DNA of 64,000 bases from positions 23,006 through 87,005 of the forward strand of contig VGFK01000001.1 of assembly GCA_016868895.1 (NCBI GenBank), read 5' to 3'. The notes below the pieces were generated by a model that ran no database searches, was not told the origin of the DNA, and worked only from the letters and a program-made list of their open reading frames with translations. Shown here piece after piece: positions 19,421 through 39,027 of this stretch (positions within the stretch are counted from its first letter, which is position 1; the number at the start of each line of letters is the position of its first letter). Position numbers and translations under genes: made by a program. The DNA comes from Bacteroidota bacterium (GTDB lineage: Bacteria; Bacteroidota; Bacteroidia; Chitinophagales; Chitinophagaceae).

Positions 19421-19657
19421 TTAGATGTTGACCCCGTTGGCCCTCAGTTCTTTCACCACACTGTAGAGTCCGTTTTTGTTGATGGTACGAATCGCCTCAG
19501 AAGAAAGCTTGAGGGTGATCCATTTGTCCTCTTCCGCCAGGAAGAAGCGCTTGGTCTGAAGGTTGGGCAGAAAACGACGCTTGGTCTTGATGTTCGAATG
19601 CGACACCTTGTGACCGGTGATGGGGCGCTTACCTGTGACCTGACATACACGTGCCAT
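19421..19657 (-). CDS. rpmB: 50S ribosomal protein L28
   Basis: [10 protein letters not shown]...[15 protein letters not shown]. Confidence 0.98.
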
Positions 19658-19677
19658 AAACTCTTTTTTTGGGAGAG

Positions 19678-19709
19678 CAAAACTAACTCAAATTCCCGTC
19701 AAAAACAAA
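19678..19709 (-). promoter_or_regulatory. Bacteroidota sigma70 promoter for rpmB
   Basis: TTTG (19709-19706), 20-nt spacer, TAGTTTTG (19685-19678). Confidence 0.78.
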
Positions 19710-19759
19710 AATCTTCTGGATTGGGGTTTCCCCGTAACCAGGACCTGATAACCAATGCC

Positions 19760-21166
19760 TTAAATATCGATCGCCTCACCATAGGCCGCGGCTACCGCCT
19801 CCTTGACCGCCTCACTCATCGTGGGGTGCGGATGAACGGCATTGAGGATTTCGTGGTGGGTGGTTTCCAGTTTGCGGGCAACGACCACTTCCGCGATCAT
19901 TTCCGTCACCCCGGCCCCAATCATGTGGGCACCCAGGAATTCACCGTATTTGGCATCGAAGATCACCTTTACAAATCCGTCGGTATTGCCCGCTGCGCTG
20001 GCTTTGCCGCTGGCCATGAAGGGAAACTTGCCCACCTTGACCTCATATCCGGCATCTTTTGCAGCTTTCTCGGTATAGCCCACAGAGGCAATTTCGGGAC
20101 TGCAATAGGTACAGCCGGGGATGTTGTTATAATCCATGGGTTGTGGGAGGTGATTGTATTTTTTCTCCAGGTATCCGATGGCTTCTGCTGCGTTGATGCC
20201 TTCTTTGGCTGCAACGTGCGCCAGTGCTTGTCCCGGTGAGCAATCGCCAATCGCATAAATCCCCGGCACGGAAGTCTGTTGGGTTTTATCGACCACGATG
20301 CGGCCTTTATCGACACGGATACCGGTCTCTTCCAATCCGGTGTTCTCAATGTTGGGTTGAATGCCCACGGCACTCAGCAGGATATCGGCTTCCAGGACCG
20401 ATTCACCCGAAGCATTCTTCACACTGGCTTTCACGCCGTTTCCGGCGGTATCCACCTTGGTGACTTCGCTGGAGGTGAGCACCGTGATGCCTTTTTTCTT
20501 GAGTTGTTTTTCCAATTCCTTGCTCACGTCTTCATCTTCAACTGGGACAATGCGGGGCATGAATTCCACGATGGTCACTTTGGTTCCCATCGCATTGTAA
20601 AAATCGGCGAACTCGACGCCGATCGCTCCGCTGCCGACTACAATCATGGAGGCAGGCTGACCCGGCAGGACCATGGCTTCTCGGTAACCGATGATTTTTT
20701 TACCGTCCTGGGGGAGGTTGGGAAGTTGTCGGCTTCTGGCCCCTGTGGCGATAATGATGTATTTGCCTTCTACCACTTGCTTTTTGCCGGCGGCAGAAGT
20801 GACTTCAATGCGACCCTTGCCAGCGATTTTGCCGTAGCCCATGATCACATCGATCTTGTTTTTTTTCATCAGGAACTGTACTCCCTTGCTCATTTTATCC
20901 GCCACACCCCTGCTGCGTTTTACCACCGCGCCGAAATCGTGTTCCACACTGCCGGCCTTGATGCCGTAATCGCTGCTGTGTTTGAGGTACTCGTATACTT
21001 GCGCGCTTTTCAGCAACGCTTTGGTGGGGATGCAACCCCAGTTCAGGCAGACGCCGCCCAGGCTTTCTTTTTCAATGATTGCCACCTTGAAACCGAGTTG
21101 AGAAGCACGGATCGCGGCGGGATAGCCACCGGGACCACTGCCCAGAACGAGTACGTCGTATGCCAT
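19760..21166 (-). CDS. lpdA: Dihydrolipoamide dehydrogenase
   Basis: GSGPGGY, GGVCLNWGCIPTK redox disulfide, HPTMSE. Confidence 0.97.
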   Translation of the reverse strand: MAYDVLVLGSGPGGYPAAIRASQLGFKVAIIEKESLGGVCLNWGCIPTKALLKSAQVYEYLKHSSDYGIKAGSVEHDFGAVVKRSRGVADKMSKGVQFLMKKNKIDVIMGYGKIAGKGRIEVTSAAGKKQVVEGKYIIIATGARSRQLPNLPQDGKKIIGYREAMVLPGQPASMIVVGSGAIGVEFADFYNAMGTKVTIVEFMPRIVPVEDEDVSKELEKQLKKKGITVLTSSEVTKVDTAGNGVKASVKNASGESVLEADILLSAVGIQPNIENTGLEETGIRVDKGRIVVDKTQQTSVPGIYAIGDCSPGQALAHVAAKEGINAAEAIGYLEKKYNHLPQPMDYNNIPGCTYCSPEIASVGYTEKAAKDAGYEVKVGKFPFMASGKASAAGNTDGFVKVIFDAKYGEFLGAHMIGAGVTEMIAEVVVARKLETTHHEILNAVHPHPTMSEAVKEAVAAAYGEAIDI

Positions 21167-21188
21167 GTGATGGAAGTTATTTGAGCCG

Positions 21189-21196
21189 CAAAATTA
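21189..21196 (-). promoter_or_regulatory. -7 element (TAATTTTG) for lpdA
   Basis: Matches TAnnTTTG, 22 nt upstream of the ATG. Confidence 0.55.
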
Positions 21197-21201
21197 GAGA
21201 A

Positions 21202-22221
21202 TTATTTCCTTTTGATCAGGACAACAGATGGAACCGATCGTTCTACACCATTGTCACCTGGACGAACGGTCGCACGGTTATTGATAATCATGCTGGTAGA
21301 ACCTCCTCCATCTAAGTTAATCGCATTGGTGCAACCGAGTTCTTTGAGGAAAAGCGCCAGGTTAGCGAGATTGATCCCAGGATACCCGTTTGCGGTGTTA
21401 TCGCCCTCCACTGTCAGCAGAATGACTATACCTCCTGCAGTATACCCAATGGCAGATCGGGGTCGTGAAGTCGTATTATTAATGTCGATCAGCTCTTCTT
21501 TATCGGTTATGCGCACCTCCCCTCCTTTCAACAGCATCGGCGATCCACCTACCGCATAGGGCGGGCTCCACTCCGTTCCGCCCGCAGGAAAAGCTTCATC
21601 CGGAATGGGCTGAGGGGCTGCTCCAATGAGATTGGCAGCGGGTGCGGGATATTGATAGACCCGATCGTTTCCTGTGCCTATGTTATACATCCATACCGTA
21701 GAGGGATCACCCGTCGATGAAATTCCAAATGCAGCGCGGGTTGGATAATACGGTGTACTGGAACCATTGTAGGTGCGGTTGACTGATTTGATATTGGGAG
21801 AAAGGACGGTATTGTATTTGATCAAGCTATACGATTGGTTGCCTCCAAAATATCCTCCATTCATGCAGGCATAAACAATTCCAGTTTCTTGCGCATAAAA
21901 TTCGCTTGGTTTTTTAGACGTAGTCGACAACGTCGGTTTGAATTCCAGGTAACTGATCTTGGGATTGAAGGCCACTGCAAATGCCTTGATCTTAGCATCG
22001 CGAAACAAGGTATCGAATGTGTACGCTTCAATTCCCTCTGGAAATCCATTGGATAAGTTGATGTCGAATTTCCAACCGGCTGGAAGTGTGATGAGTTTTG
22101 CAACAGCTGGTGGTGTAGGAGGCGGAGCGGGATTAGGACCGGGACCAGCATTGGGAGATTTATTGCAGGCGACTGCAATTACAATCAATACCATCCATTT
22201 CAAAGCATGTACTCGTTTCAT
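21202..22221 (-). CDS. Phosphodiester glycosidase family (NAGPA/DUF2233) lipoprotein
   Basis: Lipobox VAC, Pro-rich linker, NGGYF, RPRSAIG, INLDGGGSTSM. Confidence 0.88.
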   Translation of the reverse strand: MKRVHALKWMVLIVIAVACNKSPNAGPGPNPAPPPTPPAVAKLITLPAGWKFDINLSNGFPEGIEAYTFDTLFRDAKIKAFAVAFNPKISYLEFKPTLSTTSKKPSEFYAQETGIVYACMNGGYFGGNQSYSLIKYNTVLSPNIKSVNRTYNGSSTPYYPTRAAFGISSTGDPSTVWMYNIGTGNDRVYQYPAPAANLIGAAPQPIPDEAFPAGGTEWSPPYAVGGSPMLLKGGEVRITDKEELIDINNTTSRPRSAIGYTAGGIVILLTVEGDNTANGYPGINLANLALFLKELGCTNAINLDGGGSTSMIINNRATVRPGDNGVERSVPSVVLIKRK

Positions 22222-23294
22222 TGGTATATCTGTTTTTTATACCGGTTCAATGTTTCATAATAAAAAAACACCTCCCCATTGAACCCGTATTTTCGATTCA
22301 ACTGAATCATCCCTGACAGCATCTCTTCACTCGCCTGATATCCATCGCCGAGTGAGACCAGAATACCAGGAAAAACTTTTTGTTTTAAAGATGGCGGGAC
22401 TTGTGATTGCAACTCGCCCAGAATTTTTTCATATGCATCCAACTTATACCGATAGAGTTGTGGAAAAACATAGTCGGCATAACCTCCCTTCAACCACTCT
22501 GGCCAATCCTGCAAGTATTGCTCTTTGGACCAAGGATAAATACTGGGAGCCCATGAAACAATACAAGATGGTTTTGCATTTTTGACAGCGCCATAGAGCT
22601 CTTTTCCAAACTCACTAAGACGATCAGCTTTCCATTGCAAAAACGAAAGATCGTTGGGAGTATCCATTGGAAGATCACGGCCAACAGATGTTTGATAGAG
22701 TTTGCGGGTATATGAATCCCAACCTCCTTCAGCAGGCATGGCAGGCAAACGATCATCACCCTGCACGCCATCTACGCTATACCTCTTCACTACTTCCAGT
22801 ACCAATTCTTTTAAGAGTTGTTGAGGTCCAGTATGCAACGCGTTCCACCAATAGAATCCATTTTTCTGCAACAGTTTTCCGGACCGGTCCCTTCCTACCC
22901 ACTCGGGATAACGACTGAACCAAGGAGAGGTGGTGTCGCGATAACCATAGGAAAATCCAAATTCAAACCACGCATGCACTTGAATGGAGCGAGCATGTGC
23001 AACATCGATCAATTCTTGAATTGGATCTCTGCCCGCAAACAATGGATCTTGTTCAATGCCGATGTAGCGCTTCACAACTGCGCTGGGATACATCGTGAGT
23101 CCTTTATTCCACACGACTACAAAAATGGTATTGATGCCTTGATCTTTGCATTGATCGACTGCACGCACGATACTGTCACGTGAATAGAGCACGCGACTTC
23201 CTACGTTGGTCATCCATATACCCCGAATGGGTTGCACTTGTGCAAAGGAAGACCATCCCGATAACAACAATAGAACAGCAAGCATGTATTTCAT
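22218..23294 (-). CDS. GHL10/DUF187-type glycoside hydrolase, SPI signal
   Basis: RGIWMT, VHAWFEFG, DGVQGDDR, PQLYR. Confidence 0.85.
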   Translation of the reverse strand: MKYMLAVLLLLSGWSSFAQVQPIRGIWMTNVGSRVLYSRDSIVRAVDQCKDQGINTIFVVVWNKGLTMYPSAVVKRYIGIEQDPLFAGRDPIQELIDVAHARSIQVHAWFEFGFSYGYRDTTSPWFSRYPEWVGRDRSGKLLQKNGFYWWNALHTGPQQLLKELVLEVVKRYSVDGVQGDDRLPAMPAEGGWDSYTRKLYQTSVGRDLPMDTPNDLSFLQWKADRLSEFGKELYGAVKNAKPSCIVSWAPSIYPWSKEQYLQDWPEWLKGGYADYVFPQLYRYKLDAYEKILGELQSQVPPSLKQKVFPGILVSLGDGYQASEEMLSGMIQLNRKYGFNGEVFFYYETLNRYKKQIYQ

Positions 23295-23295
23295 A

Positions 23296-24240
23296 TCATG
23301 CGTGATTGGTGTATTCTTTATAACGATTATAAAGATGATGGGCTTGGATGTAGGCCGACTGTGGGCTCATAAAATGCGAGAATTCAAATGTGATTGCTTC
23401 TTGGTAACCAGCGCGAGCGGCTACCTCCAATTTGAGTCGCATTTTTTCAAATTTGATCGGCAGGAATTTAATCGGCATGTCGCGGTCGAACGACTCGGTA
23501 TTGGTCCATGCATGCATTCCATGTGCATCCGCCAATTGTTTGTTCACCACCAGGTATTCTTCCAATTCGTGTATGTCCACATGGCCATCCTGAAAGGCAA
23601 CGACATCTACAGTTCCCTGGATGCCATCAAAAATTTCTTTCCATTCCCGCTCATGCTCCTGGATCGTTACGACTGCATCTTTGCGAAGCGCTGCATCGTG
23701 CGCCATGACTGCCTTGGGACCATCAATCCACGGAGAGATCAATGTTTGCAGGTGTTGGTCTTTTTCTTTACCGGCGAGTCCTAACGTGCGAAACGCCTCA
23801 ATGGCGCCTTTGGTTTTGCGACTGATTTCCATACTCAAGTACCAACCCTTGAATGAAGCGTGATGGCCGTAACGCGACCACACCTCATCGATCACATAGC
23901 GGTTGGCATCGATTTCGTGTTGCATATCCCCTGTATCCCAATATTTTCCTGAATCGTACAGTCCAAAATAAAAATCCATTCCATAGTGATCGGATAGCTC
24001 AAGAAACATATTCACCAGGTCTTCAGAAGGACGATGGCAATTGTATTGCTTGATTAAATATTCCGATGGGTAGGTGAGAAATTTGCGATATCCCGATCGG
24101 ATGAGGATCACTTTTCCAATACCAGTTGCTTTCATGTATTGAAAATCCTGCTCCCACTCTTTCCTACTCCAATTCTGATGTGGGATATCGTGGCTGATTT
24201 CGTCTAAAAAAGTACCTGTGATCTTCACCTGTTTAATCAT
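23296..24240 (-). CDS. DUF4434-family putative glycoside hydrolase (TIM barrel), no signal peptide
   Basis: ITGTFLDEISHDIPHQNW, GLYDSG, GWYLSME, FQDGH, WTNTESF, ITFEFSHFMSP. Confidence 0.78.
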   Translation of the reverse strand: MIKQVKITGTFLDEISHDIPHQNWSRKEWEQDFQYMKATGIGKVILIRSGYRKFLTYPSEYLIKQYNCHRPSEDLVNMFLELSDHYGMDFYFGLYDSGKYWDTGDMQHEIDANRYVIDEVWSRYGHHASFKGWYLSMEISRKTKGAIEAFRTLGLAGKEKDQHLQTLISPWIDGPKAVMAHDAALRKDAVVTIQEHEREWKEIFDGIQGTVDVVAFQDGHVDIHELEEYLVVNKQLADAHGMHAWTNTESFDRDMPIKFLPIKFEKMRLKLEVAARAGYQEAITFEFSHFMSPQSAYIQAHHLYNRYKEYTNHA

Positions 24241-26086
24241 TTAATCGATCCCACCAAAACTTTTTGAGCAGATACGAACTGACAAAAAAGATGATGGTCC
24301 ATATGGCCAACTGTGTATTGTTTTTAATCATGAAGTACATCGGAATCACCACCTGCGCCATCTGCCAAATCATTCCAATCACGACATTGAAAGCGTCACG
24401 TTTGAATGAAGTAGTTGATTTCCAGTCCGGTTCTTGTTGCAACAGCTTTTTGCGGATCGGTCCCCACCATCCCCACGGCTGGGTATCGCGATAAAATCGG
24501 ATCACCTGTTCTTCATTTTCCAATGGTGCAATATACGTTCCGATCACGCATCCTATCAGGGAAACCCCCAAGACTAAAGGAAACAAAAAGATGTCGGGCA
24601 AGTTGGGTGCTAACGCAAAAAGATCGAGCACCTGTGGTTTGAAAAAAAGAATGATGGTGCTGATGACAAGTCCTGCTACCATTCCCCCAAAATATCCATA
24701 CCCATTGAATCGCCACCAAACCCACTTGAGCATGTTGCCAGCAGCATATCCACCATAAAGAGCAGAAGTGATCCAGAGAGTCAGTCGATTCAAAGATTCG
24801 GCATTGAAACCAAAACCTATGCCTAAAATCACTAAGATCAAAGAGGCATATAAACTATAGCGAATTAGGACTTCCGCAGGGGCATCCGGACGAATGTATT
24901 TCTTATAGATGTCGTTGACGATGTATGCCGGTGCCGCATTGATGATCGCAGAGAAGGTCCCCATGAATGCCGCCAACAGACCGGCGATCAGCAGTCCCTT
25001 GAATCCGATGGGCACAAACTTATTGATTGCCAACGGCAAGACCTTTTCAAAATCGATGTTGGCACCCATTGCGGCCATCTCCGGCTGAAGGTAAACCAAT
25101 CCCAACACCGCGAACCCCGCCACCATCAGGTAACGCGGGATGTACATCACCAGAATGGTACTCATGCTCATCTTGGCAGCATCTGATGGCGTTCGTGTAC
25201 TGAGGATGCGCTGCATATCGTAACTCGGAACGGGACCCGCAATGGAAGCAAATATTCCTTTGAAAACCATCATCATCAGCAGCGCACCAAACCATCCAAA
25301 ACCATCTGAAGCAATTTTATCATTGACCAACGGATAGGGTGTGGCGGTCCAATCGAGATCAAGTTGCCAACCCGACCAAAGATTATCCCATCCAGCTGGA
25401 ACAACTGCCGCAATCTGTTCAGCTGTCACCTGTGTATACCCAATATAGGCTACCAATAAAGCACTGAGCGTCATCAACACAAACTGCAACACCTCCGTTG
25501 CCACAACACTGTACATCCCCCCTTTCACGGTATATACCGTGGTGATGCCACAAATCAACAGCGCATAGGCGCGTTCGTTGGGAATGACCCAATTGCCAAT
25601 GCGAAACGAAAGATCATAGGGAAGAATAGAAGTGCAGAACTTTCCGATGCCTTCAAAAAAATAGGCCATGAAGCCCATCACACTCACCAGCGCGAACACT
25701 ACTATAATTATGTAGGAAAGCGTTGCACCCCTTCCTTCTCCAAATCGAAAGCTGATCCACTGAGCACCCGTCATGGCATTGCTGCGCCGCATCCATACTG
25801 CCAGGAAAACAAATACAAAGACCTGATTCCATACCGGCCAGAGCCAAGGAATCCAGGCACTTTTTAATCCATAAACAAATAAAATCATGACCGTCCACAT
25901 GCTTCCACTGATGTCCCACATACCTGAAGCGTTGGAAAGTCCCAACGTATACCATTTCATAGAATTCCCACCGAGAAAATACGACTGTAAATCACGCGAC
26001 GCCAACCGGGATAAGTAAAAGCCCGCCACAAGCGTAAGACCCAAATATGCCAGGATGATCAGTAAATCAAGCAGATGAAGTGACAC
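24233..26086 (-). CDS. Sodium:solute symporter (SSS family)
   Basis: GTG start; many TM segments; YFLGGNSMKWY, MQRILS, LAAFMGT motifs. Confidence 0.9.
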   Translation of the reverse strand: MSLHLLDLLIILAYLGLTLVAGFYLSRLASRDLQSYFLGGNSMKWYTLGLSNASGMWDISGSMWTVMILFVYGLKSAWIPWLWPVWNQVFVFVFLAVWMRRSNAMTGAQWISFRFGEGRGATLSYIIIVVFALVSVMGFMAYFFEGIGKFCTSILPYDLSFRIGNWVIPNERAYALLICGITTVYTVKGGMYSVVATEVLQFVLMTLSALLVAYIGYTQVTAEQIAAVVPAGWDNLWSGWQLDLDWTATPYPLVNDKIASDGFGWFGALLMMMVFKGIFASIAGPVPSYDMQRILSTRTPSDAAKMSMSTILVMYIPRYLMVAGFAVLGLVYLQPEMAAMGANIDFEKVLPLAINKFVPIGFKGLLIAGLLAAFMGTFSAIINAAPAYIVNDIYKKYIRPDAPAEVLIRYSLYASLILVILGIGFGFNAESLNRLTLWITSALYGGYAAGNMLKWVWWRFNGYGYFGGMVAGLVISTIILFFKPQVLDLFALAPNLPDIFLFPLVLGVSLIGCVIGTYIAPLENEEQVIRFYRDTQPWGWWGPIRKKLLQQEPDWKSTTSFKRDAFNVVIGMIWQMAQVVIPMYFMIKNNTQLAIWTIIFFVSSYLLKKFWWDRLND

Positions 26087-26128
26087 AACGGATCTTTAAT
26101 AATTTTTATAAAGCTAATTATAAATAAT

Positions 26129-26148
26129 AATTATTTTTAAAAATAATT
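26129..26148. promoter_or_regulatory. Perfect 20-bp palindrome in a divergent promoter region; candidate ROK operator
   Basis: AATTATTTTTAAAAATAATT between the SSS and GHL10 starts. Confidence 0.45.
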
Positions 26149-26160
26149 TCCCCTTCAATC

Positions 26161-27330
26161 ATGCTTCAGCGTTGCTTAAAAATAGTGCGCGCAATCGGTA
26201 TTCTTCTGCTGTTTGCCATGTTAATAAGTGGATGTAAAAAAAACGCAGGTGAAGATCCCCCTGTTCGACCTCCCGGTCCGGTGGAACCGGTATGGGATCC
26301 GAATGCCATGCGCGGAGTGTGGATCACTACCACAGCGAGTACGGCGCTGGACAATCTGGATAACATTCAGGCAACGGTAACGGCCTGCAAAAAAGCAGGG
26401 ATCAACCATTTATTTGTAGTCGTTTACAACAACGCCCGCACGATTTATCCCAGCGAAGTCATGAACCGGTTGATTGGTGTTCGTCAGTTGGAAAAATTTT
26501 CTGGTCGCGATCCCCTCAAAGAAATCATCACTGCCGGAAAGGCTGCAGGATTGAAAGTCCATGCCTGGTTCGAATATGGTTTTTCATCATCCTACAGTGC
26601 ACAAGGTGGGTCGATCATTCGCGCAAAGCCCAATTGGGCGGCCCTGGATCAGAACAGAAGTTTGGTGGTGAAAAACGGGTTCGATTGGCTCAATGCGTTC
26701 GACCCCGAAGTGCAGCAGTTCATGATTGATCTGTTCAAAGAAGTTGCAACCAATTATGATGTAGATGGCGTGCAGGGCGATGACCGTCTCCCTGCTGTCC
26801 CTTCTTCTGCAGGTTACGATGATTATACCGTTGCAGAGTATAAAAAAGAGCACAGCAATGCATTTCCAACAACCAACATCAAAGATCCGGCTTGGCTAAA
26901 GTGGCGAGCTAATCGTTTGAATGGATACATGAAACGATTGTATACAGAAATGAAATCCATTCGATCAACGTTGCAAGTCACCATGTCACCTTCTCCCTAT
27001 CCGTTTTCGTTGGAGGAATACTTGCAGGATTGGCCAACGTGGGTGGACAGCGGATGGGTAGATGCCGTTATACCACAATGTTACCGATATGAAATTGGCC
27101 CCTATTCCACCACCCTTCAACAGCAAAAATCATATTACCGCAGCTCGACGATTCCCTTGTATCCGGGAGTGCTGGTAAAATCAGGAACCTATGTAGCCAG
27201 TGCAGGGTTTTTAACGCAAATGATTCAGGCAAATCGCAATGCAGGATTTAGAGGTGAGGTGTTCTTTTTTTACGAGGGACTCAAAGATGCATTGCCGTGG
27301 TTTGAAGGACAATATCCATTCATTAAATAA
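26161..27330 (+). CDS. GHL10/DUF187-type glycoside hydrolase, lipoprotein
   Basis: Lipobox ISGC, MRGVWIT, VHAWFEYG, DGVQGDDR, PQCYRY. Confidence 0.85.
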   Translation: MLQRCLKIVRAIGILLLFAMLISGCKKNAGEDPPVRPPGPVEPVWDPNAMRGVWITTTASTALDNLDNIQATVTACKKAGINHLFVVVYNNARTIYPSEVMNRLIGVRQLEKFSGRDPLKEIITAGKAAGLKVHAWFEYGFSSSYSAQGGSIIRAKPNWAALDQNRSLVVKNGFDWLNAFDPEVQQFMIDLFKEVATNYDVDGVQGDDRLPAVPSSAGYDDYTVAEYKKEHSNAFPTTNIKDPAWLKWRANRLNGYMKRLYTEMKSIRSTLQVTMSPSPYPFSLEEYLQDWPTWVDSGWVDAVIPQCYRYEIGPYSTTLQQQKSYYRSSTIPLYPGVLVKSGTYVASAGFLTQMIQANRNAGFRGEVFFFYEGLKDALPWFEGQYPFIK

Positions 27331-27337
27331 TCCAGTC

Positions 27338-29500
27338 ATGAAAAAAATTGGGACGGGTCTTCTGCTGATGTGGGTGGTGGCCTGCCAACAACCAGCTGTT
27401 GATCCATTGAAACAGGTAGATCTATTTTTAGGAACAGGTGGACACGGTCACGTGCATCCTGCAGCCACAGTGCCTTTTGGAATGGTGCAGGTGGGTCCCG
27501 ATAATGGAGTAGATGGATGGGATTGGTGCAGTGGATATCATTACAGCAGCACAACCATCGCCGGTTTCAGTCATACGCATCTCAGCGGAACAGGCATTGG
27601 AGATGGGTATGATATTTCGGTATTGCCATTGACCAATACCGATAGCATGCAAGAGGAGCGGATTCACCTTCCATTTTCACACGAGAATGAAACTGCCTTT
27701 CCGGGATACTACCGAGTGCAATTGGACAATGGAGTGAATTGTGAAATGACTGCAACAGACCGATCGGCCTTACACCGGTATCAGTTTCCAACCGATACCG
27801 GCTGGTTGCGTTGGGATCCGAGCTATCATCAGAACTGGGATGCAGTCGATTCAGCAGAGGTTTGGGCAGTGAACGATACCACCATTGCTGGATACAAGCA
27901 TTCAACCGGTTGGGCAAAGAATCAGCGCGTCTACTTTCAAGCAGTTTTCAATCAACCCATCAAACAAGTTGCATTCATTGGCGACAGCACGTGGGAAGTG
28001 GGCAATGAATTGAACGGAACAGGTAAAAAAGGAAGAAGCCTGAAACTCTTGCTGCAATTCGCATCAGCAACATTGCTTGAAGTGCGTGTAGGAATCAGCA
28101 ATGTGTCGTATGCGTCTGCTCAATTATCAAACACAGAAAATGCCGGTCGCAATTTTGAATCGGTTCAAACAGCAGCAGCGAGCAAATGGACAACTGCGCT
28201 ATCCTTCATCCGAATCAAAACAAAGGATGAGCAGATGATGAAACGATTTTATACTGCCGCCTATCGCACCTGTATGGCACCCTCCTTGTATTCGGACGGT
28301 GAAGGAAGGTATCGAAATGCGGATGGACGTCTGCTGCAAATGAAAAAAAATACTTCCAAGTACACGATTTTTTCAACCTGGGATACATTTCGAGCACTGC
28401 ACCCATTGTTTACCTTAACCCAACCCGATCGCGTTGCCGAATGGATGAACAGTTTACTGCAATTTTATCGCGATAATGGTCGATTGCCCGTGTGGGACAT
28501 CAGCAGTTGGGATGCCAACACCATGACAGGATTTCATTCTGTTCCCATTTTGGCCGATGCCATCTTAAAGAACATCAAGGGATTTGATCATGCAGAAGCT
28601 TATGCGGCCTTGAAAGCTTCAGCAGAACAACCCATACGGGGAACGCCCTACTTTAATCAGTTTGGGTACTTGCCACATGATTTACATGGGTGGAGTGTAA
28701 CCTATACCCTGGAATATGCATTCGATAATTGGTGCATTGCACAGGTGGCACGCAAATTGGGATTTACAGAAGAAGCAGTGCGTTATGAACAACGGGCAGA
28801 AAATTACAAAAACCTGTTCGATCCTGCTACTGGGTTCATGCGTGGAAAATTGAGTAATGGAAAATGGGTAGAGCCATTCGATCCCTATGTTTCAGAGCAT
28901 GGGTTTGAGGGACAATACATTGAAGGAACCGCTTGGCAGCACAGCTTTTTTGTCCCCCACAACATAAACGGATTAGCCGCATTATATGGCGGAAAGGAAC
29001 GATTGATTTCAAAATTGGATACGCTTTTCACAACAGCATCTGTTTTAAAAGGTGATAATGTTTCCATTGATGTAACAGGATTGATTGGCCAGTATGCACA
29101 CGGCAATGAACCCTCGCACCACATTGCGTATATGTATACTGCGTTGGGTAGGCCAGATAAAGCGGCAAAATGGATTCGTGTCATTGCCGACAGCATGTAC
29201 AAAACCGGTCCCGATGGATTATCCGGCAACGACGATTGCGGTCAGATGAGCGCGTGGTTTTTGTTCAGCACCATGGGTATGTATCCGATGAATCCGGCAT
29301 CTGGAGAATACGTAGTTGGATATCCTTTATTGGAAGAGGCCACGATTCAAGTATCCGGGGGGAAATCAGTTACCATTCAGCGCAAGGGAAATGGCAAGAG
29401 CGTAATCAAGATCATCATCAACGGGAAACAACAGGACAAGTGGGTGATTCAGCACCAGCAGTTGATGCAAGGAGGAACCATTGAATTGCATACAGAGTAA
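27338..29500 (+). CDS. GH92 alpha-mannosidase family, lipoprotein
   Basis: PFGMVQVGPD, GFSHTHLSGTG, STWDTFRALHP, YAHGNEPSHH, GNDDCGQMSAW; start trimmed to MKKIGTG. Confidence 0.95.
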   Translation: MKKIGTGLLLMWVVACQQPAVDPLKQVDLFLGTGGHGHVHPAATVPFGMVQVGPDNGVDGWDWCSGYHYSSTTIAGFSHTHLSGTGIGDGYDISVLPLTNTDSMQEERIHLPFSHENETAFPGYYRVQLDNGVNCEMTATDRSALHRYQFPTDTGWLRWDPSYHQNWDAVDSAEVWAVNDTTIAGYKHSTGWAKNQRVYFQAVFNQPIKQVAFIGDSTWEVGNELNGTGKKGRSLKLLLQFASATLLEVRVGISNVSYASAQLSNTENAGRNFESVQTAAASKWTTALSFIRIKTKDEQMMKRFYTAAYRTCMAPSLYSDGEGRYRNADGRLLQMKKNTSKYTIFSTWDTFRALHPLFTLTQPDRVAEWMNSLLQFYRDNGRLPVWDISSWDANTMTGFHSVPILADAILKNIKGFDHAEAYAALKASAEQPIRGTPYFNQFGYLPHDLHGWSVTYTLEYAFDNWCIAQVARKLGFTEEAVRYEQRAENYKNLFDPATGFMRGKLSNGKWVEPFDPYVSEHGFEGQYIEGTAWQHSFFVPHNINGLAALYGGKERLISKLDTLFTTASVLKGDNVSIDVTGLIGQYAHGNEPSHHIAYMYTALGRPDKAAKWIRVIADSMYKTGPDGLSGNDDCGQMSAWFLFSTMGMYPMNPASGEYVVGYPLLEEATIQVSGGKSVTIQRKGNGKSVIKIIINGKQQDKWVIQHQQLMQGGTIELHTE

Positions 29501-29516
29501 GTCCTCATTGAATGGA

Positions 29517-29550
29517 TAAAAATACGGGCCGCGCTTCGCGCGGCCCGTAT
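29517..29550. terminator. Perfect 13-bp hairpin between convergent GH92 and SusD
   Basis: ATACGGGCCGCGC-TTC-GCGCGGCCCGTAT; U-tract follows on the minus strand. Confidence 0.85.
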
Positions 29551-29574
29551 GGCTTTGTATCCTTAGAAGCTATT

Positions 29575-31356
29575 TTACCATCCCGGATTCTGCGTGATGC
29601 CTTTGTTGGCATCGATCTCGAATTGAGGTATAGGCCAACGCTTGTATTTTGAGTTGGCGTTATTTCTAATCTGATTGCGGAAACGGATCCGTTGATTGAT
29701 GCTGGAAGTATAGTTGGGTACTTCGTTTGCATCAAAAGTAGGACGAGCGGGAGCCACGAGAGGATTTGTGGCGTAGCCAACAATGGGGCCACTATTCGCA
29801 CTCTCATAGATGTCCCAGCGACGCAGATCAAACAGACGCTGTCCTTCACCTGCAAACTCTACAACACGCTCGCGACGAATGATCTGGCGGAGTTCAGCCT
29901 GGCCGGTGGCAGTGACTGCAGGTTGACCAACACGGGTACGCACCTGATTGACGGCCGCGAGAACCGTTGCATCAATTTCATTCAACTCGGTCTTTGCTTC
30001 CGCATACATCAACAGTATATCTGCATAACGCATCAAGATATATCCCGTTTTAGTTTCCCAGATGTATTGGGTAGAGTCAATGTATTTTCTCCAAACATAC
30101 CCCACACCGCCAATATTACCGGTTGCACTTACCTGCCATTGAATACCAGCTGCCTGAGCACCGATCCAGTCGTTGTTACCGGTTACGTTATCAAATGCAT
30201 TGGTATTCCAATTGAACCTTCTGCGAATATTGCTATGAATATTGAAGATGGTTTTTTCTTTGGGTTGCACATATGGGAGCGATGGCGTCTTGAGGGTGTT
30301 GTATACCATGGTATCACCAGGCATATAAATGGTCCAACGCAGACGGCTATCGCGGTTCGCGCGAGGGTTCAGCGGATCGTAAACAGTTGACTGATCGATG
30401 CGCTTTCCATCATTTCCTTCATAACGATCAACGAGCGCTTGGGTAGGAAAGTGGCTGCTCTGTGAGTTGGTTACCTGACGGGGAACACCGAGAATCGGGC
30501 CCCAGTTTTGCGGATCCAACAAATCGGTTGGATACGCCTGATTGAACATGATCTCTCTGTTCGCATTTGCGTTTTGTCCTGCTAAGAGAAACAGATTGGG
30601 ATAGCTGGGGTTGAGACCATACTGTCCAAGATCCATTACAGCTTTTGTAGCTGTGGCAGCTGTACGATAATCTTTGATGAGCAGGGCAAGTTTGGCTTTG
30701 AGTCCCAATGCCACCCCCCTGTTTACGCGGCCTTGCGCGATAACGGGCTGTGAGTTGGCTGCAGCAAATGCAGCAGATGCTTCATCCAGATCTTTGTAGA
30801 GCTCTGCAACTATGGTTGCAACGGGTGTGCGGGTAGCCGACAGTACTTCTGTAACGGAAGGAGTTTTGTTGTACCAAGGCACATCACCGAACATGTACAT
30901 CAAATGAAAATAGGCCCATGCGCGAAGCACCAGCGCTTCAGCGCGAATCCGTCCATAGGTTGTTGCAGGTACAAAAGTCTTACCCGTTTCCATTCCACCT
31001 AGGTGTTGGTTGGAACGCTGGATCAACCGGAAGGCCTGACTCCAGCAGGTGTTGACCAGTGTGTTATTGATCAGGAAGGGTCCACCATCCCCCATCGCCA
31101 CAGCATCTTCGGCATTGCCGCCGCGTTTGATGGCCAGATCGGTTGAGGCTTCTACTGCAAATAAAAGGGGCGTGTTGTTGGGAAAAGCCCAGAAGGCCGC
31201 ACCGTACACACCGTTGAGGCTAAGTTGCATTTCTTCCTGATTGGCAAGAAAGTTGGTGGATGAAGAAGCATCCAATGGCTTCCTATCCAAAAACTTACTG
31301 CACCCTGCGGCACCCAGCAGGAGTGTGAGGAAGGAGAAGTATATTAACTTTTTCAT
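29575..31356 (-). CDS. RagB/SusD outer-membrane lipoprotein
   Basis: Lipobox AGC, LRAWAYFHL, MRYADILLMYAEA, RRERVVEFAGEG.RLFDLRRW, QNPGW. Confidence 0.95.
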   Translation of the reverse strand: MKKLIYFSFLTLLLGAAGCSKFLDRKPLDASSSTNFLANQEEMQLSLNGVYGAAFWAFPNNTPLLFAVEASTDLAIKRGGNAEDAVAMGDGGPFLINNTLVNTCWSQAFRLIQRSNQHLGGMETGKTFVPATTYGRIRAEALVLRAWAYFHLMYMFGDVPWYNKTPSVTEVLSATRTPVATIVAELYKDLDEASAAFAAANSQPVIAQGRVNRGVALGLKAKLALLIKDYRTAATATKAVMDLGQYGLNPSYPNLFLLAGQNANANREIMFNQAYPTDLLDPQNWGPILGVPRQVTNSQSSHFPTQALVDRYEGNDGKRIDQSTVYDPLNPRANRDSRLRWTIYMPGDTMVYNTLKTPSLPYVQPKEKTIFNIHSNIRRRFNWNTNAFDNVTGNNDWIGAQAAGIQWQVSATGNIGGVGYVWRKYIDSTQYIWETKTGYILMRYADILLMYAEAKTELNEIDATVLAAVNQVRTRVGQPAVTATGQAELRQIIRRERVVEFAGEGQRLFDLRRWDIYESANSGPIVGYATNPLVAPARPTFDANEVPNYTSSINQRIRFRNQIRNNANSKYKRWPIPQFEIDANKGITQNPGW

Positions 31357-31374
31357 ATCTCGAGTTTTTCTTGT

Positions 31375-34512: not shown

Positions 34513-34536
34513 GTGACTGTTTGTGTTGATTAATTG

Positions 34537-36417
34537 CTATAATGATTGAATTTCTCCTTGGTGATCAATGGAAACGCGCATGAATGGATCGATCAACCGA
34601 TCGATCAATACAGCAAATTGTCCCCTTGTTATAAACTTCGTCGGCTCCATACCCATGATTCCAGCTGCTTCAGATGCCGACCATACGACAGAATCTTCTT
34701 CCTTTAATTGCAGTCCGTATCGTAGACTTGCAGTTTGTACTACTAGTTGCTTGGCTTCCGCAATCGACAACCACAATCCCTTTGCATTGAAGTCGCTCAG
34801 CCACTCCTTTCCATTGCTTCGCAGGGTATCTACATTTACGTGCTGATCAGGATAGAACCAGGTTTGATTGGCCCATTTATACGGTATTCCTTTACCTCTG
34901 AGCAATCCGGTAGCTCCAACTCGATGGATACTTGAGAACTGTGGATGCGTAGGTGCAACATCTATATAAGGAAGGATCATGGCCTTTTGCTCAAGGAGTA
35001 AAGTTTGTACTGCTCTTATTGGGACTGCTCGAGGAGCAACTCCTTTTTTAACAGCTAAAGCTGCCAACGCACCAGCAGCCTGACCAATCAGCATCACACA
35101 GGGTTGCAATCGGGTTGCACCATTGATGATGTTACTGACACTGATATTTTTTTCAGCAGAAATGACTCCATCCATTGTTGCAGGAATGAGTGCGCCCAAT
35201 GGAATAGTGAAAGAGGGAACCGGATAAAAATCCAATTGCTGGGGAGCTAGTGGATTTTTTTTATGGTGATGATCCACCGGATAATCGCCTACTGCAATTC
35301 CAGTGCGGTAAAGATCTGTTGCCTGCTCAAAGGGTTGAGCAAGATGCAACATATTGAATCGTACGACTCCTTTTATTCTGCGGGACTCACGGTGGTATGG
35401 AATCAATGCAAGTTTGTCACTTGTTGGAAATTCATCATCTGCCAATCCTAAATGACGGTAACCCAATTGGTGTTGAATGAAATAAACGAATCGAAGCGTT
35501 TGTTCTTTAGCCAAAGCATATCCGCTGTCTTGTGCAGCACGATCTAGACCAATGGGATTAAAATAAAAATCATTCCCATAGTTGGGCCAGTTCAACATGA
35601 ATTTTCCATTGGGGAGTCGACCGTAATTGAGCAGGGTTTGCGCATTTACTGTCGGTTTCTTGCGCGAGGAATCAGTATGATAATCGCTACAAGCTCCGTC
35701 GAATTCTGCCGGTGAATAGTTTCGCGGTTTTACGATCGTGCAGTCCGCATCTTTTCCATAATCCTTGAGAATTGCAACGTAGGTGAGGTCCTGAATGATT
35801 CCGGCTCCGTTTCCTACTTCAATCTGTTCAGTTCGTGCCACCTCAGGTTCCAATCCCACGTCAAACACAACACCTGCGGCAGCAATGGCATCCCCTAATT
35901 CCGTTGCATCAATCACAACATTTGCACGTACTTCGAGTTTATCTCCAGTAACGCTATGGATAAACTGTGCACCCTGAACCTTGTTGCTATCCTTCATCAC
36001 ATTGGACAATGTCCATCCGAATTCGGTAACCAATGCCGCCTCTTTAGCAACCATGGTCTTAAAAATACGGTCTGCCACATGCGGCTCAAATAAGGTATTG
36101 CTCACCCATCCAGTTTCAACTTTGGTTGGCCCTCCATAATGGGTATAGATCATTTCCCTGAACTCATTCCAAATTCCTGATGGAATAGTGTGGTTACCAT
36201 CAAATGCAGAAACTCCTGCAGCACTGATCATTCCTCCCAACCAGGACGTTTCTTCCACAAGCAGCGTCTTAACACCTGATCGCGCACTTTGAAGAGCGGC
36301 AGTAACGCCCGATGCTCCTCCACCGATAACCAATACATCCGTCTGTACCTGCTTGATTTCTGAACAGGAGTTCAGCAGCAGTGCAACAACAATGATGATG
36401 TGGTTAAGACTTTTCAT
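34537..36417 (-). CDS. FAD-dependent oxidoreductase (FAD_oxidored-like), predicted lipoprotein
   Basis: Lipobox LNSC, VIGGGASG, DATELGD, YHRESRRI, GDYPVDHH, TRLQPCVMLIGQAAG. Confidence 0.85.
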   Translation of the reverse strand: MKSLNHIIIVVALLLNSCSEIKQVQTDVLVIGGGASGVTAALQSARSGVKTLLVEETSWLGGMISAAGVSAFDGNHTIPSGIWNEFREMIYTHYGGPTKVETGWVSNTLFEPHVADRIFKTMVAKEAALVTEFGWTLSNVMKDSNKVQGAQFIHSVTGDKLEVRANVVIDATELGDAIAAAGVVFDVGLEPEVARTEQIEVGNGAGIIQDLTYVAILKDYGKDADCTIVKPRNYSPAEFDGACSDYHTDSSRKKPTVNAQTLLNYGRLPNGKFMLNWPNYGNDFYFNPIGLDRAAQDSGYALAKEQTLRFVYFIQHQLGYRHLGLADDEFPTSDKLALIPYHRESRRIKGVVRFNMLHLAQPFEQATDLYRTGIAVGDYPVDHHHKKNPLAPQQLDFYPVPSFTIPLGALIPATMDGVISAEKNISVSNIINGATRLQPCVMLIGQAAGALAALAVKKGVAPRAVPIRAVQTLLLEQKAMILPYIDVAPTHPQFSSIHRVGATGLLRGKGIPYKWANQTWFYPDQHVNVDTLRSNGKEWLSDFNAKGLWLSIAEAKQLVVQTASLRYGLQLKEEDSVVWSASEAAGIMGMEPTKFITRGQFAVLIDRLIDPFMRVSIDHQGEIQSL

Positions 36418-36429
36418 TCTATGGATTCC

Positions 36430-37647
36430 TTAATTAGTTGTTGTGGATGATAATGAATTAAATGATTGCGCAACCATGAGGAGTCCGCGCGGAATATGAA
36501 AACAGCCCTTCCATTTACCCCCTTTTGCAGTGTGCAAGGGCTCACCGTTGCGGTGGAGGTATCCAAACCACTCTCCATAGATTGGGTCTCGGAATTTTTC
36601 CCAGGTATATTCATGAACTTTTTCAAACCAACTTAAACAACGTGTATCTCCGGTAAAAGCATAACCTTTTGCTAATGCGACCAATGTTTCGATGTGTACC
36701 CACCACAGTTTCTGATCCCACTCTAACTGCTGCATGGGTTTTTGAAATAAATCCAAAAAGTAAAAAATTCCACCCTGCTCATTGTCCCAGGCATGATTAA
36801 CTGTATGGAGCATGATGTCTTTTGCCTTAGTAATCAGGGCCGGATCGTTGATGCGCTTGCCAATATCCATGATGAACCACATGGCTTCGATGGCATGGCC
36901 ATGATTAAGGATTCTTCCTTCAAATGAATCGACGATTGAATGGTCGGTGCTGACATTTTCAACCACGAGTCCGTGTTCGGGTCGATAAAATACATTCATC
37001 ACCTGGTCCACTACTTCTGGAATGATCGCATCCACGCGATCTTTTCCCAAGATGTGTTCCATCTCAAGAGCCAGGTTGCACAAGATCATGGGGAGGGTGA
37101 AATTCTTCATCGGTCGCGTCCCAGTTATCGTTTTATTGAACTGACCTTTCCAGTTGTGCTGTCGCTTCCAAATACTTTCAAACGTTTCAGCTGCAATCTG
37201 CTGATAGGTTGCACTTGGCGCTATGGCATGCAATGCAGAGAAACCCATCGCCGCAAAACAATCGCTAAAAATATTGTGCGCATGGGTAAGTGGCTTACCA
37301 TCTGCTTGCAATGAAAAATGCCAATGTCCTTGTTCGTTTCTACCATGCTGCTGCAAGAATCGGGCTCCATGCAAAGCAAATTCCCGCCACTCATCACGCT
37401 GCTGAACTACTCGGAACATGGTTGAGAAGGTCCATACTTGTCGGCCCTGCAACCAAACAAACTTATCGGTATCGTATACCTCTCCCTCACGCGTCAGGCA
37501 AGTAAAATACCCCCCATGTTGAGCATCCTTGCTATACCGCAACCAAAACGGAAGAATGTTATTGCACAATTCATCGACATAAAGTCGTCCGTAATTCATC
37601 CCGCCTACTGCAGTTTGAAGGGAGGGCCAAGTCGTTGCCTGTTCCAT
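36430..37647 (-). CDS. N-acylglucosamine 2-epimerase (AGE family)
   Basis: GGYFTCL, WLQGRQVW, GHAIEAMW, KLWWVHIE, KGGKWKGCFHIPR; alternative start at 37599. Confidence 0.92.
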   Translation of the reverse strand: MEQATTWPSLQTAVGGMNYGRLYVDELCNNILPFWLRYSKDAQHGGYFTCLTREGEVYDTDKFVWLQGRQVWTFSTMFRVVQQRDEWREFALHGARFLQQHGRNEQGHWHFSLQADGKPLTHAHNIFSDCFAAMGFSALHAIAPSATYQQIAAETFESIWKRQHNWKGQFNKTITGTRPMKNFTLPMILCNLALEMEHILGKDRVDAIIPEVVDQVMNVFYRPEHGLVVENVSTDHSIVDSFEGRILNHGHAIEAMWFIMDIGKRINDPALITKAKDIMLHTVNHAWDNEQGGIFYFLDLFQKPMQQLEWDQKLWWVHIETLVALAKGYAFTGDTRCLSWFEKVHEYTWEKFRDPIYGEWFGYLHRNGEPLHTAKGGKWKGCFHIPRGLLMVAQSFNSLSSTTTN

Positions 37648-37788
37648 TAACAAAATTTATTTTCAAAGAACGTAATTTATAAATATTTTACTTAAAGAGT
37701 CAACTTTATTAATTTTTTTATTAATTAATGTCCCTTCGAACTGAACAAAAAAGCCAGTCGTTTCGGGAAAAGAGAATAAATTAGTCCG

Positions 37789-39027
37789 ATGGCAAGCAAG
37801 CGCAAGAAGGTCAATTTTGAATTGTTCAGCCTGGGTTCATCGTCGGGTGTGGCCTACAAGAATAAGGCCCTGAAGAAGCAGATCATCCAGTTCATCGATA
37901 ACCGGGGCAGTAGTTCCATAACCGAATTGAGCAAAGAACTCACCACCAGCGTACCCAAAACAACGGCATTGGTGGGCGAATTGATCACGGAGTGGTTACT
38001 ACAGGATGAGGGTAAAATCGATTCTACTGGAGGGAGAAGAGCAAGTGTCTTTGGACTGGTGTCGGATGCTTGCTTTTTTTTAGGTGTGGATGTAAAGAAG
38101 TACCATATTAATGTTGGGTTGATGGATTTTCAAAAAAGGATGGTGACCCACAAGGACAAGTTGCCCTTCAAGATGGAGAACACAGCAGAGTCTCTTAAAA
38201 AACTCATACAACTCATCAAGGATTTTATCTCCCATTCACAAATTGAGCGTGCACGAATTTTAGGCTGCGGAATCAATCTAACCGGAAGAATCAATCAGCA
38301 TACCGGTCACAGCTATAGTTTTTACCATTTCAAGGAAGAGCCTTTGGCTGAGGTGATTCAGCAGGAAATCGGAATTCCTGCGTATTTGGAAAACGATTCC
38401 CGCTCCATGGCCTTTGGAGAATTCTATTCAGGTGAATTGAGCAGTGAACGCAATGTGTTATTCGTAAACCTCGACTATGGCATCGGATTGGGCATTGTGG
38501 TGGATGGAAAAATCTATTATGGTCGTTCAGGATTCAGCGGCGAGTTCGGGCATATTCCGTTGTTCGACAATGAAATCATCTGCCACTGCGGAAAGAAAGG
38601 ATGCCTGGAGACGGAAGCCTCCGGTTGGGCCCTTATTCGAAAATTCAAGGAACGGCTGGAAAAAGGCTCTTCTTCATCGGCAGTGAAAAAAAATACATCT
38701 GCCAGCGAGATTACCCTGGAGGACATCATCACGGCTGCCAAAAACGAAGACACCCTCTGCATTGAATTATTGAGCGAGATCGGGGAACAGCTGGGAAAGG
38801 GATTGGCCGTGCTGATCAATGTTTTCAATCCGGAGCTGATCATCCTCGGCGGAACACTTTCAGAGACCGGCGATTACATTCGGCTTCCGGCACGAAGCGT
38901 ATTGAATAAATTTTCATTGAGCCTGATGAACAACGATACTTCGCTTCGGATATCGCGATTGGGCGAGCGTGCAGGTGTAATAGGAGCCTGCCTCATCGCC
39001 CGCTTAAAAGTCATCAACAACACTTAA
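37789..39027 (+). CDS. ROK-family transcriptional repressor
   Basis: N-terminal wHTH, STGGRR, GEFGHIP, CHCGKKGCLETEAS zinc motif. Confidence 0.93.
   Translation: MASKRKKVNFELFSLGSSSGVAYKNKALKKQIIQFIDNRGSSSITELSKELTTSVPKTTALVGELITEWLLQDEGKIDSTGGRRASVFGLVSDACFFLGVDVKKYHINVGLMDFQKRMVTHKDKLPFKMENTAESLKKLIQLIKDFISHSQIERARILGCGINLTGRINQHTGHSYSFYHFKEEPLAEVIQQEIGIPAYLENDSRSMAFGEFYSGELSSERNVLFVNLDYGIGLGIVVDGKIYYGRSGFSGEFGHIPLFDNEIICHCGKKGCLETEASGWALIRKFKERLEKGSSSSAVKKNTSASEITLEDIITAAKNEDTLCIELLSEIGEQLGKGLAVLINVFNPELIILGGTLSETGDYIRLPARSVLNKFSLSLMNNDTSLRISRLGERAGVIGACLIARLKVINNT

Follow-up and report, generated by a model that had tools for sequence, protein, structure and literature searches.

From where does a bacterium draw the N-acetylmannosamine (ManNAc) for an N-acylglucosamine 2-epimerase (AGE), an enzyme that interconverts ManNAc and N-acetylglucosamine (GlcNAc) and that, in catabolism, needs a source of ManNAc? 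The question is raised by a polysaccharide utilization locus (PUL) within a 64,000-nucleotide stretch (hereafter the window, to whose numbering all positions refer) of contig VGFK01000001.1 from a Chitinophagaceae genome (GCA_016868895.1). Here AGE is encoded together with a Na+/solute symporter of the SSS family and a protein of the DUF4434 family. In our best explanation, to which we give a probability of about 0.5, a small ManNAc glycoside is imported and hydrolyzed by DUF4434, and the released ManNAc is epimerized to GlcNAc. The explanation is built on gene identities, locations, synteny and fold, from which we infer what the substrate is, that the chemistry is hydrolytic and which kind of polymer is the source. 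An initial annotation of the window had proposed that DUF4434 cleaves an imported glycoside containing an N-acetylhexosamine (HexNAc), and in that general form the proposal is still the best reading.

A module at and inside the inner membrane

The symporter gene (24233..26086, minus strand; 617 aa) and the DUF4434 gene (23296..24240, minus strand; 314 aa) overlap by 8 nt at 24233..24240, just as first annotated. Read directly, the junction ATGATTAA places the DUF4434 ATG at 24240-24238 and the symporter stop codon TAA at 24235-24233, an overlap of the translational-coupling type. Genes for an exported GHL10 protein and a NAGPA-like lipoprotein belong to the same operon. At their successive junctions the four genes overlap by 8 nt, stand 1 nt apart and overlap by 4 nt. 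Because the genes are packed this tightly and the set recurs across the phylum, the arrangement is not a matter of chance.

All enzymes of the locus carry a Sec or lipoprotein signal except DUF4434 and AGE. The DUF4434 open reading frame (ORF) is the longest possible, an N-terminal extension being impossible, and its product begins MIKQVKITGTF, where the first strand of the barrel already lies; a signal peptide would find no place ahead of it, and the earlier statement that the protein starts at its catalytic domain holds. AGE (36430..37653, minus strand; PF07221, E 5.3e-70) was likewise correctly described as lacking a signal peptide: its N-terminus is not hydrophobic, and its true start is likely Met19 (MNYGRLY...).

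Among characterized proteins, AGE aligns over residues 22-402 with the GlcNAc 2-epimerases of Nostoc/Anabaena (structures 6F04, E 1e-147, and 2GZ6, E 9e-145) and has the same residues at the positions of the Anabaena catalytic R57, H239, E308 and H372, whereas the best match to a cellobiose 2-epimerase is of partial length (E 2.8e-22). By sequence it is thus predicted to be a true monosaccharide GlcNAc/ManNAc 2-epimerase (EC 5.1.3.8) and not a cellobiose 2-epimerase, in which case epimerization should follow cleavage and act on the free monosaccharide. The symporter covers the whole of PF00474 (positions 1-406 of 406; E 1.6e-23), and its match to TIGR00813 (E 1e-28) lies below the curated cut-off and so assigns the superfamily only. 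It is distantly related to SGLT/vSGLT (E 7e-8) and more distantly to the sialic acid carrier SiaT (5NV9; E 1e-4). We propose that it is the inner-membrane importer of a small glycoside.

The association of these genes extends well beyond one genome. A scan of species-representative genomes, in which all ORFs were clustered, yielded 80 loci with DUF4434 orthologs at 66-81% identity from Chitinophagales, Sphingobacteriales, Cytophagales, Flavobacteriales and Bacteroidales. A transporter from any of three families is encoded in 68 of these loci, directly up- or downstream of DUF4434 in 64, and AGE is present in 36, as an immediate neighbor in 32. Several orders share a compact form of the locus, a ROK-family gene next to a run of genes for an FAD-oxidoreductase-like protein, the symporter, DUF4434 and AGE. 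Among 251 Bacteroidota genomes, the 10 with a strong DUF4434 match all encode AGE, as against 19 of the other 241, a comparison that is descriptive and not a statistical test because the genomes are related. The genomic association between DUF4434 and AGE is real and strong, and the co-occurrence with AGE and with transporters that the first proposal implied is borne out: symporter, DUF4434 and AGE make up a module of cytoplasm and inner membrane that is conserved in Bacteroidota.

In a quick IQ-TREE phylogeny of DUF4434 from 77 loci, 61 proteins are signal-less and start at the barrel. On the other hand, 18 loci (L035, L036, L048, L054, L055, L057, L059, L063, L065-L067, L069, L070, L072, L075, L077-L079) encode forms with an N-terminal twin-arginine (Tat) signal of ~55 residues, often with a lipobox cysteine. 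The 16 of these in the tree, which does not include L036 and L066, make up a single clade nested among the signal-less forms (SH-aLRT 99), its hosts being Bacteroidales and three Flavobacterium genomes. The transporters follow suit. Signal-less enzymes stand behind an SSS symporter (22 loci) or a major facilitator superfamily (MFS) permease resembling the AmpG family (26 loci; TIGR00901, E 3.7e-34), and 16 of the 18 Tat forms have a XylE-like sugar porter directly downstream; the two sets do not mix. Such a change matches what would be expected of an enzyme with a small, importable glycoside as substrate and neutral monosaccharides as products. The initial annotation's cytoplasmic enzyme is found in the window and in the 61 signal-less loci, and not in this one derived clade, which refines the cytoplasmic model rather than refuting it. 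As a pair, the cytoplasmic and Tat-exported forms illustrate how a catabolic step can cross the inner membrane and bring a matching change of transporter with it. AGE, for its part, is cytoplasmic in both types of locus; therefore it must act after the periplasmic DUF4434, at least in the Tat clade.

The three Flavobacterium copies of that clade (L072, L078, L079) branch from within those of Bacteroidales, suggesting that the Tat form and its sugar porter moved together between orders.

The DUF4434 barrel and its proposed reaction

The window protein matches PF14488 over the full length of the profile (E 6.3e-79; 265.9 bits against a cut-off of 30; residues 7-297 on positions 1-283 of 283). 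The family is small, with 817 clusters at 50% identity, and an ESM Atlas search with the protein returned DUF4434 clusters only. The closest known object is the uncharacterized ortholog BT_0435 of Bacteroides thetaiotaomicron (PDB 4H41), at ~65% identity. The AlphaFold2 (AF2) model of the window protein, with a predicted local distance difference test (pLDDT) score of 93, is a (beta/alpha)8 barrel of eight strand-helix units, and 4H41 is its nearest fold neighbor (Z 45; root-mean-square deviation 1.6 Å over 307 residues). There follow, at Z 17-21 and ~10% identity, Cwp19 of family GHL10 (Z 21), a GH164 beta-mannosidase (Z 19) and members of GH42, GH5 and GH53. Apart from GHL10, these neighbors are retaining enzymes of clan GH-A.

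In an alignment of 30 diverse family members, Glu138 (in GWYLSxE) and Glu249 (in NxES) are kept in at least 90%; in the model these residues come after strand 4 (130-134) and strand 7 (243-247), respectively. This fold, together with a glutamate after each of those strands, points to hydrolysis, and the model makes DUF4434 a candidate retaining glycosidase that would release ManNAc. A 2-acetamido group positioned cis to the leaving group is unable to take part in catalysis in the way seen in GH20, which makes an enzyme with two carboxylates chemically sensible. To our knowledge, no enzyme hydrolyzing ManNAc glycosides has been described; a search of 8.4 million papers did not find the term "acetylmannosaminidase", nor any mention of an enzyme with this activity.

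A second link between DUF4434 and ManNAc comes from proteobacteria. Many exopolysaccharide machines have, in the periplasm, a hydrolase that acts on the polymer they make; BcsZ, PgaB and PslG are examples. In a profile search, E. coli YbcH, the product of the third gene of nfrBA-ybcH, proved to be a full-length PF14488 protein (E 1.5e-69). NfrB has been proposed to polymerize UDP-ManNAc into a ManNAc polymer, and YbcH is described as a dispensable periplasmic auxiliary or scaffold protein, with no mention of a hydrolase role (PMC8669469, PMC8669472). YbcH shares with the window protein the GWY(L/I)SxE motif (GWYISAE in YbcH) and a QDG motif, yet it is highly divergent, with 16% identity over 138 columns aligned by hhalign, and it is a membrane-anchored periplasmic part of a biosynthetic machine whereas the window protein belongs to a catabolic locus. 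By analogy with the many machines that carry a hydrolase for their own polymer, it is a reasonable inference that YbcH might be a ManNAc-specific hydrolase. DUF4434 is thus linked with ManNAc in two unrelated settings.

Taken in order, the proposed steps would be as follows. The exported enzymes of the locus (two GHL10 proteins and the NAGPA-like, GH92 and FAD-oxidoreductase-like proteins) would trim a HexNAc-rich bacterial surface glycan to a small glycoside. The glycan would probably bear phosphodiesters and, judging from related loci, O-acetyl groups and de-N-acetylated residues. The symporter would import the small ManNAc glycoside, most simply a ManNAc-beta-1,4-HexNAc disaccharide, and cytoplasmic DUF4434 would hydrolyze it to release ManNAc, the candidates for acid/base and nucleophile being Glu138 and Glu249, respectively. 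AGE would then turn ManNAc into GlcNAc, and genes in other parts of the genome, for a ROK kinase and a NagB-PIG-L fusion, could provide the route on to fructose-6-phosphate. ManNAc is known from teichoic-acid linkage units, secondary cell-wall polymers, capsules and the Nfr phage-receptor glycan. The possible source polymers, among which we make no choice, would include teichoic-acid linkage units, Bacillus-type secondary cell-wall polymers and Nfr-type ManNAc polymers.

Weighing the proposal and its alternatives

A number of observations count against release of ManNAc by DUF4434. Clan GH-A enzymes usually have an Asn directly before the acid/base Glu, whereas this position is Met137 here and varies across the family; because this half of the Asn-Glu motif is missing, the modeled protein is best termed GH-A-like and assigned to no CAZy family. 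A literature search for DUF4434, BT0435 and acetylmannosaminidase returned no assay data for any DUF4434 member, and 4H41 is a structural-genomics entry whose sole label is "putative alpha-L-fucosidase". (A further search returned nothing relevant to DUF4434; BT0435 and BT0436 went unnamed, and 4H41 matched strain names only.) As for the module, the interval first given for it, 23296-26086, does not take in AGE, which lies 12.2 kb upstream of DUF4434, at the head of the SusC/D arm. In 44 of the 80 loci AGE is not seen within the fetched flanks. The joint change of compartment and transporter is one evolutionary event and no statistical correlation, and gene neighborhood cannot name a substrate. 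Furthermore, the FAD-oxidoreductase-like partner may alter the sugar before import, and GH92, an alpha-mannosidase family, is not accounted for by a ManNAc glycan.

Some of these same points could be read as evidence for a non-classical reaction, in which the imported compound is a ManNAc derivative and DUF4434 takes off its non-sugar group (a pyruvate ketal, lactyl ether, phosphate or phosphodiester), or in which the substrate of DUF4434 is a sugar that the FAD-oxidoreductase-like protein has modified. The missing Asn-Glu motif would be in keeping with this, as would the recurrence of that lipoprotein (21 loci) and of phosphodiester enzymes (NAGPA, Metallophos). However, the glutamate pair at strands 4 and 7 of a GH-A/GHL10 fold suits glycoside hydrolysis best, and the neutral-sugar porter of the exported clade suits ordinary monosaccharide products; we consider such chemistry improbable.

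The presence of GH92, in the window locus and in 17 related ones, invites a second alternative, namely that DUF4434 is a cytoplasmic beta-mannosidase acting on Man-beta-1,4-GlcNAc, the N-glycan core left after GH92 trimming, in place of the GH130 enzyme of Bacteroides, with AGE only loosely connected. GH164 and GH5 beta-mannosidases and mannanases (Z 18-19) are indeed among the top fold neighbors after GHL10, and GH130 (PF04041) is found neither in the locus nor in the window genome, which is 95.8% complete. Those neighbors are, however, a generic clan GH-A set at ~10% identity, and the locus profile search showed no endo-beta-N-acetylglucosaminidase (GH18, GH85). GH92 occurs in just 17 of the 80 loci, as compared with AGE in 10 of 10 genomes with a strong DUF4434 match, and release of mannose would leave AGE without a substrate. 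A mannosidase is in our estimation unlikely.

Equally doubtful is a role in the breakdown of peptidoglycan, whereby the PUL would be directed at the cell wall, DUF4434 would cleave GlcNAc-MurNAc or MurNAc-GlcNAc (MurNAc, N-acetylmuramic acid) brought in by the AmpG-like or SSS importer, and AGE would handle minor amounts of ManNAc from teichoic-acid linkage units. The nearest fold neighbor outside the family, Cwp19, is a characterized GHL10 member and a peptidoglycan lytic transglycosylase (PMC6016235, PMC5765458). The alternative importer resembles the AmpG family, and the NagX-like N-acetyltransferase, SGNH esterases and GH20 of related loci would suit a modified cell wall. A second GHL10 enzyme is E. 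coli DigH. The scheme has an obvious counterpart in AmpG-NagZ peptidoglycan recycling, where a HexNAc disaccharide enters through an AmpG-type permease and is split by a glycosidase in the cytoplasm; in 26 of our loci an AmpG-like MFS permease takes the place of the SSS symporter. Here, though, the glycosidase would be DUF4434 and not GH3, and what lies downstream is AGE and not a set of MurNAc-processing enzymes: AGE is the constant neighbor, MurNAc kinase and etherase genes are not seen in the 80 loci, and the YbcH link indicates ManNAc, not MurNAc.

The initial annotation had likened the module to the Bacteroides mannan route, represented in Bacteroides fragilis by a symporter, a cellobiose 2-epimerase and a GH130 mannosylglucose phosphorylase, the sugars being mannose and glucose. 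The outline is shared, in that a disaccharide brought in by a cation symporter meets an enzyme of the AGE superfamily and a cleaving enzyme inside the cell, and the outline alone: the window module has a monosaccharide-type AGE, a GH-A-like hydrolase barrel and no GH130, and in the proposed pathway cleavage comes before epimerization and HexNAc is the sugar. The corresponding scheme, in which the AGE-family enzyme would epimerize the reducing end of the disaccharide and a DUF4434 phosphorylase would then split it, can point to these same parts. AGE nevertheless groups with the GlcNAc 2-epimerases (E 1e-147) and not the cellobiose 2-epimerases (E 1e-22), the DUF4434 fold is unrelated to GH130, and a cytoplasmic AGE cannot precede the periplasmic DUF4434 of the Tat clade. 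The parallel is not supported, and we regard the scheme as very improbable.

Finally, one must ask whether the ManNAc comes from sialic acid. Bacteroidota sialic acid clusters (NanL, NanE, NanT, NanOU, NanS, GH20) are like the present loci in having an AGE-type epimerase beside a transporter, SusC/D, O-acetyl esterases, GH20 and a ManNAc intermediate. DUF4434 loci differ in being without lyase or sialidase, DUF4434 occupying the ManNAc-generating place without a catalytic lysine. Of the 10 genomes that combine DUF4434 with AGE, not one reaches the nanA cut-off (TIGR00683), a result that is weak on its own since the model is strict; more useful is that three genomes in which the two genes are adjacent contain a single gene of the DHDPS family. 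That DUF4434 is itself a substitute N-acetylneuraminate lyase, making ManNAc and pyruvate in a nan-like cluster (AGE, transporter, SusC/D, SGNH/SASA esterases, GH20), can be dismissed as scarcely credible, given that the alignment of 30 diverse members has no invariant or near-invariant lysine to form the Schiff base, that the symporter resembles SiaT no more than it does sugar carriers, and that B. thetaiotaomicron, which has BT_0435 and AGE, is known not to grow on sialic acid.

A sialate lyase encoded elsewhere in the window genome was also considered as a ManNAc source and rejected, the second DHDPS-family gene belonging to a hydroxyproline cluster (aldehyde dehydrogenase, proline-racemase family). 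Adjoining this catabolic cluster and a GH95 gene, on contig C9 at 3108-5786, a TonB-dependent receptor is present as two adjacent ORFs (Plug, 3108-4589; beta-barrel, 4599-5786), and may be a frameshift or a pseudogene.

The surrounding locus and its meaning

Profile searches resolve the region 21202-39027 into a single Sus-like PUL of three arms and a divergent ROK-family gene, with a SusC/SusD pair flanked by two GHL10 genes, GH92, NAGPA, the FAD-oxidoreductase-like gene and ROK. The first arm (minus strand) runs from AGE through the FAD-oxidoreductase-like lipoprotein (34537..36417; PF12831, E 1.1e-89; lipobox LLNSC) to the outer-membrane uptake pair SusC (31375-34512; TIGR04056, E 2.5e-240) and SusD (29575-31356; PF07980, E 3.2e-50). 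The second (plus strand) encodes a GHL10 lipoprotein (26161-27330; PF02638, E 3.4e-59) and a GH92 alpha-mannosidase-family lipoprotein (likely start 27338, end 29500; PF07971, E 1.1e-157). Taken from 27239, the GH92 frame is at its longest and shares 92 nt with the GHL10 gene; the likelier start is 27338, 8 nt past the GHL10 stop, where a lipoprotein-like N-terminus, MKKIGTGLLLMWVVAC, begins. The third arm (minus strand) continues from the symporter and DUF4434 into the exported GHL10 protein (22218-23294; PF02638, E 7.2e-55) and the NAGPA-like phosphodiester glycosidase lipoprotein (21202-22221; PF09992, E 5e-27), which further match Cwp19 (E 1.3e-9) and NAGPA structures (E 1e-7), respectively. 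Divergent from AGE is the ROK-family gene (37789..39027, plus strand; PF00480, E 8.5e-55, residues 98-405), whose product has an N-terminal extension of ~97 aa and is a probable NagC-like regulator. A promoter and terminator scan of 19500-27500, whose coverage does not extend to Bacteroidota promoters, gave no sites above those in shuffled sequence.

The FAD-oxidoreductase-like protein is an unusual companion. Periplasmic flavoproteins are usually exported by the Tat route; this one has a Sec-type lipoprotein signal, LLNSC, with the dinucleotide-binding motif GGGASG immediately after it. A sequence search matched only the FAD-binding motif, and its AF2 model (pLDDT 86) has no close fold neighbor, with generic two-domain flavoproteins at template modeling (TM) scores of 0.34 or less. 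A D-Y-x-x-D-H-H-H motif (residues 378-385), invariant in 18 homologs, falls in a loop modeled at low confidence.

With regard to the fate of GlcNAc, the window genome encodes a ROK kinase and, on contig C4, a 656-aa NagB-PIG-L fusion, both outside the locus. Neither canonical nagA (TIGR00221) nor DUF5009 was found in this 95.8% complete genome, and the fusion probably supplies the GlcNAc-6-phosphate deacetylase and deaminase steps. The genome is a mere 1.75 Mb in size, and yet it has retained this 18-kb PUL.

Across the 80 loci the most frequent companions are GHL10 with or without DUF4985 (52), SGNH esterases (49) and the NagX-like DUF5009 (34), followed by the FAD-oxidoreductase-like protein (21), NAGPA (18), GH92 (17) and divergent ROK (17); NagB-PIG-L, GH20, SASA and Metallophos recur as well. 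Literature searches on teichoic acid and peptidoglycan PULs, DUF5009, DUF4985 and PF12831 returned no account of this type of locus. Individual loci add detail. In L003 and L008, for example, as many as 4 tandem exported SGNH esterase paralogs lie between importer and DUF4434, which suggests a target glycan with several kinds of O-acyl group. In the Prevotellaceae loci L067 (2856-5537) and L057, GHL10, DUF4985 and a calcineurin-like phosphoesterase form one 893-aa fusion, so that the predicted glycanase-like and phosphodiesterase-like activities of the PUL family are physically linked. Finally, L058, on a contig labeled Devosiaceae (Pseudomonadota), encodes a signal-less DUF4434 at 69% identity that falls inside a Chitinophaga branch of the tree and lacks the usual neighbors; either the gene was transferred into an alphaproteobacterium or the contig was binned wrongly.

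The B. thetaiotaomicron region around BT_0435 belongs to the same PUL family, with AGE (BT0437, BT0453), GH89 (BT0438), SusC/D (BT0439/40), DUF5009 (BT0446), GHL10 (BT0447, BT0449), a phosphoesterase (BT0448) and a sugar porter (BT0454). BT_0435 itself differs from the window protein in having ~53 extra N-terminal residues, with residues 56-366 matching the window model, and because its close relatives carry a twin-arginine signal it is predicted to be periplasmic.

We regard the module as a good candidate for a new glycosidase activity. More tentatively, and with somewhat less confidence than we place in the window reading, DUF4434 could be the founding family of N-acetylmannosaminidases, releasing ManNAc for AGE in PULs on either side of the inner membrane with a matching transporter, and trimming polymer as YbcH in the Nfr machines of proteobacteria. 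Were this wider reading true, the PUL family, including B. thetaiotaomicron BT0435-BT0454, would serve ManNAc-containing cell-wall or exopolysaccharide polymers. Confirmation of the activity would add a new family of glycoside hydrolases, for which a crystal structure (4H41) is already at hand, and would suggest a function for E. coli YbcH. It would also explain why AGE is retained in bacteria without a sialic acid pathway, B. thetaiotaomicron among them, and would provide a substrate class for a PUL family present throughout Bacteroidota, in soil, in freshwater and in the gut.

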